Of a stretch of 58,242 bases of DNA, positions 3,001 through 9,000 are shown piece by piece. The stretch comes from Candidatus Levybacteria bacterium GW2011_GWA1_37_16 (GTDB lineage Bacteria; Patescibacteriota; Microgenomatia; Levybacterales; UBA12049). A program made the position numbers. Position 1 is the first letter of the stretch. Each line of letters opens with the position of its first letter. Location of the stretch: contig CALRDJ010000001.1 of assembly GCA_943354875.1 (NCBI GenBank), forward strand, positions 1 through 58,242, given 5' to 3'.

Positions 3001-6000
3001 GAAAATCCAGTTTTAAGAATTGTACTAAGAGACCATTGCGTATTTCGAGGGACAGCAATTACTTTTTTACAAATCTTTTGCAGTGCCTCAACATCTTCTT
3101 TTTTCTGATGTGATCTTTTTTCACAAATTAACGTAATCTCGTGTTTTTTAGACAGTAGTTTTAGGATATTATACAGACGAATATGTCCACCAGAAAATAG
3201 TGGGTATGGAAGGTACGATGAGACTACTAAAATTTTCATGGATGAGACCGCAGATCAAATAATATGTAGTCCTTAGAGCTGGAGACAATTTTGTATGTCT
3301 TACCGAAATCAAAATCTTTGGGATTTGTATTGAGTAACACCAAGTAGTCTGCGCCCAACTCTATCATCTCTGGCAAGGGATGCTCGAAGCTTGCCCAGCC
3401 ACTTCGACGCGTCTGATACAGAAATGACGTATCTCCGTCATACGGCACTATCACTTTCGCATCTTTCGGAATGAGTGCGTCTACTGCCTTACCGGTGCGA
3501 ACAATTGCTTCATTATTAATGTTGAAATAATCACGGACGTAATACCAACCGAAAAAGACACTAAATGCCGTAATTACAAAAATTAAACTATATGCTATCA
3601 ATTTATTTTTTTGTATATCCAAGATCGTCTGTACCCCTATTCCCATAAACATTGCAAGCGTTGGAATAATCAAGATTTGATAATAATCATGCTGAACATT
3701 TCCTCTTGCAATAACAGTCATATAGATTAAAGAGGAGACAAGAAAGGAATATATAACAAGTATTTTTTTATCTTTTAACGGATATAAAAACCCTGCTACG
3801 AGGAACCCCAAGCCCCAATATCCTGCTATGAGTCGCCCTATGCGATCTGCGAACAGCCAATAGAAAAACGCCCCTTTAAATCTAATCTCTCCACCATTTA
3901 GGAGCCATGCACTCACCGGTATCCCCTCAGGAAACTGCTGCATCCATAAACGCCAAGCCAGAAGTGGGATCACAGCCAGAACTGCAATAAAAACCAGTTC
4001 CCATCTTTTCCATATCCCCCACCCATATCTATTCCATGCCATCACCAAAAGCGGTACCATGAAGAACAGCGCATACGGTTTTATCAGAAAAGAAGCTGAG
4101 ATGAAAAATAATGCAAGCAAGCCATAGATCCACTTATTTTTTTTCGTTGTATCGAGCCATTTGTCGAAAAAGTATGTTCCCGAAAGTACCATGGTCGTCA
4201 TGGAAACATCGGGCAAAAGCGTTCTACTATAGTAGATGCTATAAGGAAGAAAAAGATAGAAGAAAGCAGCAGAAATACCTGCTACATCTGATATATATTT
4301 TCGAAGAATTAAGTACAACATGAACCCTGAAAAAAGTGACGCAAAAATATTTACCAACCTGCCCCACTCCTCAATGGTAAAATGATGGAAAACAACAAAT
4401 AGACCAGCCTGAGCAATATTATAGAGAGGAAACTCTACAAATCGATACCCAAACGGATTTTCCAAGCCTGAAGGAACATTCGATAAGTCGTCAAAACGAG
4501 GATGTAAAATATCAAAACCGTGGTCTACAAAATTACGAGAAACTGCAGAGGTGTCTGCTTGACGCCACGAATGCCAATCAGCTATAGGGTTATCGAATCG
4601 ATATAGCCTGACTATAAATCCGAACGTAAAAATAAGTACCAATACTATAACTTGTAATTTCTTCATCACACATTAATTAAGGTTTTACCGGTACAATCTC
4701 GCCAGTTTTTATCTTGGTCAATTCAGTTAGGCTACCATTCTCATTGAACTGCAAAACTCTTCCGAGATTTGTACCTTTTATGGAAAAGGCTTCTTCTGGA
4801 GAACCTACTTGATAAATAATCATGTCCTTATCCTGAAACACAAGCCAAACCGCGTCAGAAAGACCAACTGGAAATAACCAAGCATCACCATTTCTGATCG
4901 GCACATTCACAAAATATAATGTCTCTGTCTCTTCTTTAGGATATCTGGCATATGTATAGTTTATGGACGAGAGGAAATTCTGAGCTTTTAGCCCTGCACC
5001 TGCCCAATCCGCCTGCAATTTTTGTAGCTGAAAAAGCTGAAGAGATGAAAAGAGAATCACCACGAAAATAACCACTGAAACAGCTATTTGCCTACCATTT
5101 ATCAACAGATGCTCGTACATTTTTCTTAAAAATACTATAAGAATTAACACAAAACCGAAAGATGCCAAATAACTATAACGAGCGGTAATATTTCCCAGTC
5201 CTAGGAATGGCAAAAGGGCTATGATGAAAAATAGCAATCCGAAAACAATAACTCTCTTATCATCTTGAGATAGTTTTGCCATAAGTACTTGATATAATTT
5301 TATCGAACCAATTACGATACAGATCATTATTAAAGCAGTGATAAAGAAATGAACTTTAGATATACTTCTTAACTTCTCAAAAAGCGGTAAAGACGAAGGA
5401 CCTAATAGAGCAAGGGTAAAGTAGCCGATACTATTTCCTATCGTATTAAATGGTAATTTTAAGATATTGTAACTATAGTCTCCGTTAAACCAATGACTGT
5501 TTGAAAATAAACGAAGTATAAAATAAGGAAGAAGTGGAGAAAACAAAATTAAATAGGTTCTTTTCTGCATCAGTGCATTCCTCAACGATTTCTCGATAAA
5601 CACTACGTCATAAAGTACTAATAGAAGCGGCGCTACCACACCAAGTTCGTGAAACAAAGTGGCGATAAAAAGAGATAGAACGGTCAATACTAAATAAATG
5701 CTTTTCTTTTTTTCTTTCCAAAGGGCATAAAGTACCAAACTCAACAATATGAAAACCGCATTAAAAAGATGGCCTGTTCCTGATGTCCATAAAATTAGCT
5801 CCGAAGGCCCACTCAGTATAAGAAATAATACTGCAGCGCTTACTGAGAGAAATACGCTCTTCAATACTTTTATTCCGAGCATAAAGATAAGAACTAAGGT
5901 AGCAAACGCAAGACTGAGAGAAACGAAGTGATATATGGTTTGATTTAACCAAAAAAATGAATACATGAGATCAAAGTAAACCTTAGTTCCAGGACGATAG

Positions 6001-9000
6001 AAAAACCCATCTGATTGGATAAAATAATGGGTAAGGGTAGAGAGTGAGCTACATGAACCACAATCAGCAGCCCACCTAAGCCAAGTAAAATCATCTCCCA
6101 CAAAGTAATTTGATGTAGTCTGTGAATATAAAATAAAGGTTAAAAGAAATAAATATATAACTATTGCTAATTTTGAAATTATAATTTTCTTAATTTCCTC
6201 AAGAATATCAAGATCTTTATCTTTATATAAATTCACAAGTCCCATAACTACTCCAGTAAGCATCCAATACACAAATGCCACTTTCGATGCCTCAAAGACA
6301 TCGATGAGCACTGCATTAAGAGCTAACCCTACTGTTCCAGCAGCAAAGCCGACCATGAAACTTTTCGCAACTGGATCATCTACTCGCGGAAGGACTTTCT
6401 TAATAGATATACCGACTATGAGAAATATTGAAGCAAACGAAATAAAACCTAAAATTCCTGACTCTCCTAAGATACGGAGATAATCATTGTCTACGGCCAA
6501 ACTTACTGACCCATATCCGCTTCCGAGCAGTATATTTCTATTAAAAGCTGCGATCGTACGTGGCCATTCTCCCTGAGTTCGCGTAGTGAATGAAAGATCG
6601 TAGGCTTTCGCTTTTTTTATGATAAATTCACCGTCAAAATAACTGATTCGCGCAGAAGTCGTACTAGGCTGATTCGGTCTTTCTTGAAAAAATTCTTTTA
6701 ATGTTTCCCTAACTGGTGAAAGCGGTAAGTTAATATAACTTGATCCCTGGGGAAGACTTTCTCCGTTTGAATTGCTGGGAATTACGATCAATGCGGCCTC
6801 TTCTGGCAAATTAGCATAAGCCACTATAGCAGAAGAACTAGCTATCAATGGGTCACGATCACCTACGGCCTGTTTTACGACTACTTTATCTTTAAAATAC
6901 TCTTTCTGTACTTTTTTTACCTGGCCGATCGTAACTCCCGTCCGTGCATCAAGAAGCACATCGACTTCCGTAACAGTACTATTAAATCTCTGCAAGAGAC
7001 TCGGGAAGAAAATAAGAAAAAATATCGTCAAAACTCCCAGAGACAGAAGAACTAGTTTTTTCTTTTGGATGATAAGTAGCATAAGAAGTGCTACTAAAAG
7101 TACTACTACTGACACGCGAGAAACTGTCATAAAAAGCAGAGCAAAACCGAGTGCTGAAGCAATCAGAAGTAGCGCTTTTGCCAGTAAATTTTTAAATCCA
7201 AATACTAAACTTACTGTTATCGGTATAATGAGGACTAAATATGCAGCCAAATCATATTGACCACCAAACGTAGATGGAACTCTGGATAACTGAGATAATC
7301 GAATAGGAATTCCCTTTGCAAACTCCTCATTCATAGTCAAATACGCAGGAAATCCTAAATACTTCTGACCAAATCCATACCCCACAACTCCCATAAGCAC
7401 GAATGATAGTAAAACAGCCACGTGCGATATAAACTTTTTATCCTTCATACCAGAATAGGCGATAAAAAAGAGCGACATATATTCTATACGCCTCAGGAGA
7501 CTGAGAAAAGCAACGTTGGAGAATACATTTGAAATGGTCGGAAAAATAAGAAGAACCCCGTGAAGTGTGGCAATACCTCCTATGATCCAGAAAATCAAAA
7601 TCGGCATTGTCAAAGGAGTTTTGATCGATATTTTTTTTCTAAAAAATAAAAACAGCCAAAGAGCTATCACTAAAACGACCAGAAAGTCTTCTGCGCGTAT
7701 ATATACCCATGTATTTTGTATGTCGATGATGGGAAGCTTCGGATACAGAGGAATAAATGCGAGAAGAAAAAGAGTAAATACAAACAAAATATTCTCAGAG
7801 AAAAAATGCACTATTTTTTTCATAAAACGTTCAATGATCTTTTATATGTAGAGATAAGATAAGTATCGCGAGTAATATGCCCAATTGCAATGGCAATTAT
7901 CGCCTTACAAATTAAAAATAATCTTACAACATAATATTCTACCATGCTTTTATGTTTTAAGAAAAAATAAGAAATACCTGCATAGATATTCACAATCGCA
8001 AATGTCCTACTTGAACTTCCTTGACCGACGTGAACAACTCGTGCCGAGGGAAAGTACTTAACTCTCATTCCAAGCCTATGAACCCTGAAGCAGAACTCCA
8101 TATCTTCTACGTACATAAAAAAATGCTCGTCAAAACCCTCTAGTTTCCCAAACAGATCAGATTTCACAGCCATAAACCCTCCACTCACCCAATCAACTAA
8201 CTGAGTCTTTTGCATTACGGATATCATATTTTCTCGTTGTTTTCCAAAAAACAAAATTTTAACCACTGTCCAGACAGAATAAAAACTGCCGAATGATTTT
8301 TGAATCGTTTTATTTTCATTTTCTAGTACCCCACCCAACACGCCGAGAGATTCTTCTTCCCGTAAGAGCTCTATCATCTCAGCAATACCATTATCCAGAA
8401 GTTGAGTATCAGAATTGAGAAATATCAAATACTGACCCTTAGCCACTTTCGAGGCGGTATTATTTGCCTTCGCAAAACCAAGATTAGTATCGTTTTCTAT
8501 AAGGATTGCCTCTTTAAACTTTGACCTGACCATTTCTATGGAACCATCAACTGAAGCATTATCAACTACAATAAGCTCAAAATTAAGGGTCTTGAGGTAC
8601 TTATATAAAGAAGACAGACAAGACTCCAGCAGCTTTTTGGTGTTATATGAGACTACAATTACCGAAACCATCGTGCACGTCCGAGCTTATAATGGGGATC
8701 TTTTAAAGCCCGCTCTCCTATTTCTTTTGCTGGCACACCACCAACGATAGCAAATTCGGCAACATCCTTGGCAACTACTGCACCCGCAGCAACCACAGCG
8801 CCTTTTCCTATTGTTACCCCAGCCTGAATAATGGCTCGAGGACCGATAAATACATAGTCATGAATAATGACTGGCTCTGTAATAGGCGCAAAGCTTTCAC
8901 TCTGAAGGTCATGCTCGGATGTATAAATCATAACCTCCGATGCTATATCAACATGATTTCCGATATGAAGTTTTCCTCTTCCATCAAGGACTGCACCTTC

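Follow-up and report, generated by a model that had tools for sequence, protein, structure and literature searches.

The current analysis concerns a single minus-strand open reading frame (ORF), at positions 4677..7823 of a 58,242-nt stretch of contig CALRDJ010000001.1 from Candidatus Levybacteria bacterium GW2011_GWA1_37_16 (this whole stretch is hereafter the window). The ORF is a real, conserved gene that is nearly universal in Levybacteria-type bacteria of the candidate phyla radiation (CPR), and it encodes a protein in which a module assigned by sequence to the Wzy_C/WaaL superfamily, as a divergent member, is joined to a second module modelled with the GT-C_A fold. Structural prediction depicts the product as a two-enzyme membrane protein with 25 transmembrane (TM) helices, which probably brings two outer-face steps of surface-glycan assembly together on one chain. 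We consider it rather likely that this is a bifunctional outer-face enzyme, which couples the transfer of a glycan from undecaprenyl pyrophosphate (Und-PP) to the transfer of a sugar from a polyprenyl monophosphate (polyprenyl-P), and which is encoded within a nine-gene surface-glycan operon. A preliminary description, made from the DNA alone, had already proposed that one polypeptide combines a ligase/polymerase-type module with a GT-C module, and this architecture is now supported by homology, by structural models, and by operons in which the two modules are split.

As is evident from both the ORF listing and its translation, the gene (P0001) is a single ATG-to-TAA frame of 1048 amino acids (aa) plus its TAA stop, and all of the motifs quoted in the preliminary description are present when the minus strand is translated; unless stated otherwise, all coordinates given for the fusion and its operon refer to that strand. 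Its start codon shares the tetranucleotide ATGA with the TGA stop of the GT2 gene upstream, and the gene downstream begins 7-10 nt past the fusion stop, which together place the ORF within a tightly coupled operon. Among 5.8 billion proteins, 1077 matches were obtained by a word-indexed search. The best 120 of these are 1009-1074 aa long, share 54-59% identity with the query at 96-100% query coverage, derive from Candidatus Levybacteria or Patescibacteria where their source is named, and are labeled as "O-antigen ligase family protein" or "hypothetical". Among genomes of the same family and order, 53 of 61 contain a match to the fusion (47 of the 49 that are of high quality), and a complete copy is almost always one open frame of about 1030-1090 aa. 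Departures from this pattern are limited to copies truncated at contig ends and to two that are each interrupted by a lone in-frame stop (G054:C2:160283-163429, TGA, and G018:C57:1192-3327, TAA), for which a pseudogene, a sequencing error, or recoding are all possible. When 201 genomes were sampled evenly across the phylum, the fusion turned up in the source family alone, while other families of the same class encode N-module-only ORFs of 431-565 aa. An alignment of 30 fusion orthologs has a mean column identity of 67% and contains no indels in the linker between the two modules.

The N module (residues 1-533; 6225..7823) is modelled as 12 TM helices, and its model, Foldseek matches, and profile-profile (hhalign) comparisons all point to a Wzy_C/WaaL-like protein of clan GT-C1 (GT-C_B). 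In the preliminary description, residues 1 to about 540 had been related to Wzy_C (Pfam PF04932, gathering cut-off 31.7 bits), and this relation held up in several comparisons. A six-frame profile search of the genome recovered Wzy_C in two pieces of 23.5 and 18.9 bits, jointly 42.2 bits and hence above that cut-off. The piece with profile positions 2-69 corresponds to residues ~222-286 (6966..7160) and includes MTVSRVSVVVLL (residues 232-243; 7095..7130) with its near-invariant R236. The other (profile positions 75-148; residues 406-463; 6435..6608) contains S411, R415, W420, P421, the GSGYGS portion of LLGSGYGS (residues 432-439), as well as the closing motif DNDYLRILGESGILGF (residues 445-460; 6444..6491). 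The two pieces thus flank a domain of ~120 aa that is inserted in the outer loop of Wzy_C. This insert (residues ~284-408, between TM9 and TM10 of the 12-helix bundle; 6600..6974), delimited by the model strands and by the gap between profile positions 69 and 75, is beta-rich in the AlphaFold model, with its strands lying between residues 284 and 408; it carries the conserved block GE.LPQG..Y.NL.LSP, whose columns G354-L368 are invariant in the 30 orthologs. The size of the domain is about 120-150 aa, and the entire outer loop of the model comprises residues 273-446. A hydrophilic insert of roughly 160 aa had been reported to precede the closing motif; it is indeed present and splits Wzy_C, but the stretch in question, FNSTVTEVDV...RTIAAFNRN, amounts to 151 aa (residues 280-430).

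Weak matches to Wzy_C were likewise found in 26 of the 30 orthologs (best E 5.5e-6), and the N-module proteins of two loci, L002 and L008, in which the gene is split, match Wzy_C too. A profile of 32 diverse N modules, each 30-37% identical to the N half encoded in the window, aligned by hhalign with two canonical Wzy_C ORFs of the same genome, one of 799 aa on contig C18 (probability 97.7%, E 1.8e-12, 379 columns) and one of 403 aa on contig C39 (probability 96%, E 4.3e-9). Its sole sequence match in the Protein Data Bank (PDB) was 9rmk_A, named "Oligosaccharyltransferase" (E 0.008), while nothing useful was recovered from the PDB sequences when the full protein was run through phmmer or when the profile of 30 orthologs was used in hmmsearch. 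The full-length model has a predicted local distance difference test score (pLDDT) of 73 and a predicted template-modelling score (pTM) of 0.73, and its Foldseek matches include WaaL (7tpg_B, probability 1.0, TMt 0.57) and, more weakly, FtsW (8p1u_A) and RodA (6pl6_A). These matches all vanish when the C half alone is searched and must therefore belong to the N half.

In the putative active site of the N module, D445 (codon 6489..6491) occupies the position of the catalytic His of ligases and O-oligosaccharyltransferases (O-OTases). The His-to-Asp replacement in DNDYL had been pointed out previously, and two alignments agree with it: in hhalign, DNDYL lies opposite HNEYL of a canonical paralog (motif AHNEYL), with R415 and R181 both opposite Arg, and in 9rmk_A, where the alignment spans the signature W..A..F...G.G...HN..L..L.E.G..G, D445 lies opposite the His of HSHN. 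D445 is invariant in the 30 orthologs and in the 32 diverse N-module relatives; among the latter, R181, R415, and R450 are invariant or nearly so and R236 is near-invariant. R415, W420, D508, and E511 are conserved alongside D445 both in orthologs at 55% identity and in relatives at 30-37% identity. In the WaaL of C. metallidurans, the catalytic residue is His-313 of the HN.YL motif, whereas Arg-191 and Arg-265 bind the pyrophosphate of Und-PP (PMC10920833). Meitil et al. show that, within clan GT-C1, this His aligns with the essential Asp of the SEDS proteins and with the Asp/Glu of inverting Wzy-type polymerases (PMC10920833, section 11). The catalytic His that defines GT121 is not present in the N module, its place being taken by Asp445, and judging from these alignments the change moves the module away from a strict GT121 enzyme and toward a polymerase-like state. 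Since SEDS proteins and inverting polymerases of the Wzy type have an acid at the same position, the evidence favors the term "ligase" no more than "polymerase". The replacement carries no sign of inactivity as far as conservation can indicate, and we rejected a dead N module resulting from the lost His, because the Asp is invariant and corresponds to the catalytic state of sibling families.

The C module is modelled as a fold distinct from that of the N module. Its membrane part (residues 547-960; 4944..6185), defined from the model, Foldseek, and conserved columns, consists of 13 TM helices with the GT-C_A fold, and is followed by a small alpha/beta domain of ~90 aa (residues 961-1048; 4680..4943), predicted to reside on the outer face behind a long helix (residues 911-960); the model also places amphipathic helices in the first outer loop. 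When modelled alone, from an alignment mixing orthologs and stand-alone relatives, the C half yielded a pLDDT of 90.1 and a pTM of 0.90, again with 13 TM helices. All of its top 25 Foldseek matches in the PDB are GT-C_A proteins (E 1.5e-5 to 8.5e-3, probability 1.0, TMq 0.38-0.54), namely STT3, ArnT, AglB, PglB, DPY19, Pmt4, and AftB; AftD and Emb rank behind these, and there are no WaaL or SEDS entries among the matches of this search. The concern that the C half might simply extend the fold of the N half is thus answered by a model that matches GT-C_A only.

Consistent with such a fold, the motif YFVGDDFTWLRW (residues 573-584; 6072..6107), identified by pattern and conservation, is located in the first outer loop directly after TM13, and FFYRP follows at residues 607-611 (5991..6005). 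D577 and D578 (GDDFTW) lie 6-7 residues past TM13, are invariant in the 30 orthologs, remain at least 90% conserved once stand-alone relatives are added, and are candidate catalytic or metal-binding acids at the position typical of the GT-C_A class. Residues E675, W679, E726, Y767, R771, D782, N793, and R882 are also invariant or near-invariant, and stand-alone relatives of only 21-37% identity keep R610, K614, H632, E675, W679, E726, R771, D782, N793, and R882 as well. No Pfam or NCBIfam model matches the C half or seven stand-alone relatives (Pfam at E up to 0.1), and there was no profile match between the C half and PMT_2/PMT (PF13231/PF02366). However, one of the stand-alone relatives, P0179, matches the TPR+PMT_2 protein P0288 by BLASTP (1e-13 over 147 aa, in the region FYRP...H...E..W...E), which provides an indirect sequence bridge, and the only one, from the C module to the PMT_2 family. 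By its model, the C module therefore has the GT-C_A fold of ArnT, PMT, and STT3, and it falls outside any curated family.

In the predicted topology, the chain is back in the cytoplasm after the 12 helices of module 1, and therefore module 2 starts inside, as a GT-C_A protein should. Between them, TM12 and TM13 are connected by the cytoplasmic linker KDKDLDILEEIKK (residues 534-546; 6186..6224), which is of constant length in the 30 orthologs. With the model helices and the N-terminus placed inside, Lys and Arg account for 20 of the 59 residues in short inner loops vs 6 of the 92 in short outer loops, and the conserved blocks of both modules all fall outside. Both active sites are thus predicted to face outward, with the modules joined through a cytoplasmic linker of just 13 residues.

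It is also evident that, in other lineages, the two modules are adjacent, overlapping genes of the same operon. An exhaustive search of 50% clusters found full-length relatives down to 35% identity, together with N-only proteins of ~450-570 aa and C-only proteins of ~480-520 aa that have their own N-termini (P0176, P0179, P0241, and P0257). A further "C-only" protein, P0156, was rejected as a split gene because it is a contig-edge truncation, with the gene starting at base 22 of a 2.4-kb contig; the entire class beginning with MW..., of which this one member was checked, was left out of the split-gene count. At locus L002, the gene order is GT4 N-domain, GT4, hexapeptide acetyltransferase, GT2, Wzy_C (507 aa), C module (498 aa), PMT_2, GT4, GT2, and GT4. 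Position by position, the window genes find their best BLAST matches (26-63% identity) in these genes, each half of the fusion matches its own L002 gene, and the C-module gene overlaps the Wzy_C gene by 20 nt in a different frame. Locus L008, from another sample and with a C module 66% identical to that of L002, exhibits the same split with the same 20-nt overlap, and in the two loci the separate proteins measure 506-507 aa (Wzy_C) and 498-499 aa (C module). The junction itself is conserved between them (L002:5990-6025 and L008:3990-4025) as CTCTATG(A/C)GAAAAAA...TAG, including an A6 run, and a +1 shift there would restore a fused protein. A third split was found on a JGI contig, where an N module of 533 aa is followed by a gene of 476 aa with a 4-nt overlap. 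Thus, the survey for separate halves that the preliminary description had suggested recovered them as neighboring genes in syntenic operons. Three fused relatives keep the order acetyltransferase-GT2-fusion-PMT_2.

Stand-alone relatives of the C module are encoded elsewhere in the source genome as well. The opening pattern of the C half had been reported to recur in two other ORFs of the window, and the similarity is strong for one of them and moderate for the other. The former is P0291 (559 aa; 46838..48517, plus strand), which a hidden Markov model (HMM) of the C half built without this ORF matches at E 1e-13; the hhalign score for the same ORF is inflated by its inclusion in the profile, so that E 1e-13 is the unbiased figure. 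The latter, at 21134..24007, possesses the opening motif and aligns by hhalign at a probability of 75% (E 2.4e-5) over the first ~160 columns, which makes it a distant relative only. Plain HMMER searches detected no similarity between the C module and 21134..24007, any PMT_2 gene of the window, or its AftD-like gene, and hhalign comparisons with those PMT_2 genes and the AftD-like gene gave only noise. A further C-module paralog is located on contig 57. The start of P0291 overlaps by 4 nt the end of a gene for a Dpm1/AglJ-like polyprenyl-phosphate sugar synthase (46131..46841). Within 46131-49137 (plus strand), P0291 is situated between this AglJ/Dpm1-like GT2 gene and a methyltransferase gene, with a 4-nt overlap on each side, and the segment looks like a compact unit to make a lipid-P-sugar, transfer it, and methylate it.

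Based upon these features, a mechanism can be proposed. The GT4 and GT2 enzymes of the operon, together with its acetyltransferase, would build an oligosaccharide on Und-PP in the cytoplasm, which would then be flipped. Module 1 would transfer the Und-PP-linked glycan with inversion, with D445 presumably acting as a base to activate the hydroxyl of the acceptor and the conserved arginines (candidates R181, R236, and R415) holding the pyrophosphate. It could polymerize the repeat units made by the operon, or it could be a ligase that delivers the glycan to a final acceptor; the former role is slightly, and only weakly, favored because of the Asp state, the lack of any other Wzy_C-type enzyme in the operon, and the availability of an LCP ligase for wall attachment. 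Module 2 would add a sugar from a polyprenyl-monophosphate donor to the same glycan or acceptor, as a side branch, a cap, or a primer, and the fusion would keep both outer-face steps adjacent at a 1:1 stoichiometry. The best hint as to the donor is the 4-nt overlap of P0291 with its AglJ/Dpm1-like neighbor, which suggests that the C-module family may use a polyprenyl-monophosphate sugar. The previously suggested order of "attach then extend" is purely conjectural. A bolder version, which we regard as possible but doubtful, would be a self-contained outer-face "prime-and-transfer" or "polymerise-and-branch" machine, in which the GT-C module makes or modifies the hydroxyl used by the Asp-type module, or the reverse, while the beta domain of the insert holds the growing chain or a protein or wall acceptor. 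If true, this would be a new class of processive envelope glycan synthase with two active sites, defining the surface of a whole CPR order.

Several observations weigh against the bifunctional reading or against parts of it. At the level of the whole protein, hmmscan gives Wzy_C only 16.1 bits (E 0.01), which is under the cut-off; the N half of the model is moderately confident, with several outer loops below a pLDDT of 50; and R236, one of the candidate pyrophosphate ligands, is opposite Gln in one canonical paralog (hhalign). A flippase, an initiating phosphoglycosyl transferase, and a polyprenyl-phosphate sugar synthase are all missing from the nine-gene operon, and the pathway would need genes encoded elsewhere to be complete. 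The preference for a polymerase draws on just the Asp and the absence of another Wzy in the operon, and a monophosphate-sugar donor for module 2 is a tentative assignment, since its best structural matches, STT3 and PglB, use lipid-PP-oligosaccharide donors.

When weighing other explanations, the most substantial is a two-step protein O-glycosylation, which we consider unlikely. In this scenario, a PMT-like C module would begin the glycan by attaching one sugar to Ser/Thr residues of a protein that is secreted or located at the surface, such as an S-layer protein or pilin, and a PglL-like N module would transfer an Und-PP oligosaccharide en bloc to that sugar or to the protein. To our knowledge, CPR/Patescibacteria have no outer membrane and no lipopolysaccharide (LPS), which leaves such a cell without an LPS acceptor and thereby lends some appeal to a protein one. 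Furthermore, the only PDB sequence match of the N-module profile is an entry named "Oligosaccharyltransferase" that carries the Wzy_C signature, the structural neighbors of the C module include the protein-modifying STT3, PglB, AglB, Pmt4, and DPY19, and the stand-alone P0179 is linked by sequence to a TMTC-like TPR+PMT_2 protein. Conversely, the N module has Asp in place of the O-OTase His, no acceptor-protein gene is conserved in the operon, and the fold matches also include ArnT, AftB, AftD, and Emb, which modify lipids or polysaccharides.

It is less probable still that only one half has catalytic activity while its counterpart has degenerated into a scaffold for binding the lipid carrier or acceptor, be it an N module deprived of its ligase His or a C module serving as a docking platform. 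Such a scenario would accommodate the missing His, the protein-level Wzy_C score under the cut-off, and the failure of the C half to match any Pfam family. Yet it is difficult to reconcile with the invariance of D445, together with R415, W420, D508, and E511, from orthologs (55%) to distant relatives (30-37%), with the catalytic role of an acid at this position in sibling families (PMC10920833), or with the retention of the DD pair, E675, E726, D782, and R882 in stand-alone C relatives at 21-37% identity. As for an assembly or frameshift error that merged two adjacent genes, a single base error could in principle merge or split halves that in some lineages are separate genes overlapping by 4-20 nt. 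However, the frame runs uninterrupted for ~1030-1090 aa in dozens of independently assembled genomes of the order, the linker is free of indels in the 30 orthologs, and the split state itself recurs in two genomes, L002 and L008, that are 66% identical. On this comparative evidence, we rejected an artefactual long frame as extremely improbable, and the refutation envisaged in the preliminary description, namely that the fusion might be an assembly or frameshift artefact, can be discarded.

The fusion shares key features with several known systems, but it is distinct from each of them. Like WaaL (GT121; 7TPG; GT-C_B, clan GT-C1) and the PglL-type O-OTases, its first module is predicted to have 12 TM helices, a large outer loop near the C-terminus of the module, the signature G.G...(H/D)N.YL..L.E.G..G, an upstream conserved Arg and Trp, and conserved residues on the outer face. 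Unlike these, it has an invariant Asp for His, a beta-rich insert of ~120-150 aa in the loop, and a second membrane glycosyltransferase attached, and it belongs to a host without LPS. With the inverting Wzy polymerases (GT125-GT129) and the SEDS proteins FtsW and RodA (GT119), it shares an acid at the position of the WaaL His (PMC10920833), and FtsW and RodA are among its Foldseek matches. Like a Wzy polymerase, it is the sole enzyme of its type in its operon, although no convincing Wzz-type co-polymerase was found in the genome, and whereas the partner of a SEDS protein is a penicillin-binding protein, that of the fusion is a GT-C. The C module resembles the GT-C_A enzymes, such as ArnT (GT83; 5EZM/5F15), PMT/TMTC (GT39), STT3/PglB/AglB (GT66), DPY19, and AftB/AftD/Emb (GT53 and related), in its 13 TM helices, its N-terminus inside, a first outer loop that opens with an acidic DD motif and bears amphipathic helices, and a C-terminal outer domain. 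It differs in sharing only 10-13% identity with its structural matches, in the small size of its outer domain (~90 aa), and in being fused behind a Wzy_C-type enzyme. In the three-component systems GtrA/GtrB/GtrC, CsbB/GtcA/YfhO, GacI/GacL, and PgfS/PgfM1, a GT-C decorates a polymer assembled on Und-PP from the outside, using a polyprenyl-P-sugar made by a GT2 enzyme. ArnC/PgfS/AglJ-like synthases are similarly encoded in the window, but the GT-C of the three-component systems is separate from the polymerase or ligase. A precedent for such a fusion is WadA of Brucella/Mesorhizobium, a bimodular protein combining a GT121 O-antigen ligase with a soluble GT25 (PMC10920833, section 8; PMC9938171), which likewise unites a Wzy_C-type transferase and a glycosyltransferase of a neighboring step of the same glycan in one polypeptide. 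However, the partner in WadA, a globular GT25 that depends on nucleotide sugars, works on the core, whereas that of the fusion is an outer-face GT-C with 13 TM helices and presumably a lipid-linked donor; neither the Pfam scan nor Foldseek found a match to GT25 in the fusion. In the literature on CPR/Patescibacteria and O-antigen ligases, we found no description of a fusion between Wzy_C-type and GT-C_A enzymes.

Such a fusion is of interest for several reasons. Very little is known about the surface chemistry of CPR/Patescibacteria, whose genomes are tiny and whose cells live attached to those of others, yet this genome devotes more than 58 kb to glycan genes. The covalent link is a Rosetta-stone sign that a lipid-PP-glycan transferase and a GT-C act together, and through it a GT-C family that had lacked annotation acquires a functional partner. 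As a natural 1:1 complex, the protein would also allow structural work on how polymerization or ligation is coordinated with outer-face decoration, while an Asp-type active site in a WaaL-like scaffold bridges ligases and polymerases.

The operon consists of nine conserved genes (22..10972). Upstream of the fusion, it encodes a GT4 N-domain protein of 201 aa (10367..10972), a GT4 (9249..10370), a WcaF-like hexapeptide acetyltransferase (8659..9252), and an EpsD/rhamnosyltransferase-like GT2 (7820..8671). Downstream of it are a PMT_2-type GT-C (3236..4669), a GT4 (2022..3239), a GT2 (1134..2018), and another GT4 (22..1188). The non-membrane neighbors are generic cytoplasmic enzymes of the exopolysaccharide type, and the fusion is the only Wzy_C-type enzyme among the nine. 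The pairing of a GT4 N-domain gene with a full GT4 gene is also found in L002 (189 and 374 aa), and this two-gene arrangement is therefore not a local frameshift.

The remainder of the window contains more PMT_2 GT-Cs, an AftD-like GT-C, ArnC/PgfS/AglJ-like synthases, sugar-nucleotide modifying enzymes, and many methyltransferases; the ArnC/PgfS-like polyprenyl-phosphate sugar synthases are located at 29876..30856 and 41507..42406. Indeed, the entire window (1-58242) is dedicated to glycan biosynthesis, with at least six GT-C-type transferases, four polyprenyl-phosphate sugar synthase-like GT2s, and ~8 methyltransferases, and it accounts for more than 5% of the 1.05-Mb genome. Four canonical Wzy_C proteins and the same number of Wzx-like flippases are encoded in that genome, along with a single Bac_transf initiating transferase and a single LCP ligase. 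Its Wzy_C-type ORFs number six in total, among them the unusually long 799-aa protein with the canonical His (L014; G000:C18:15740-16306) and a 599-aa ORF with a weak Wzy_C match (L015; G000:C52:1985-2182).

Other combinations of these modules were encountered as well. A 1035-aa protein from a JGI metagenome, apparently of a GC-rich organism (P0240), is a fusion of Wzy_C (34.4 bits) and PMT (29.3 bits); its N module resembles that of the fusion, including the motif STDNDYLR, while its C part is a canonical PMT/PMT_2 above the Pfam cut-off and shows no resemblance to the C module of the fusion at the phmmer level. Three further proteins of 1123-1266 aa (P0202, P0219, and P0251) combine the same N-module subfamily with an unrelated C-terminal extension of ~600-700 aa; a Pfam scan of one of these extensions, that of P0202, gave no match. 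The N module thus seems to be a promiscuous fusion partner. Lastly, at locus L009 (1-3078), a gene that has a C module at its end precedes a GT2, after which come another C module, this one stand-alone (P0241), and then a PMT_2, an arrangement in which the C module has been duplicated or rearranged inside an operon of the same type.

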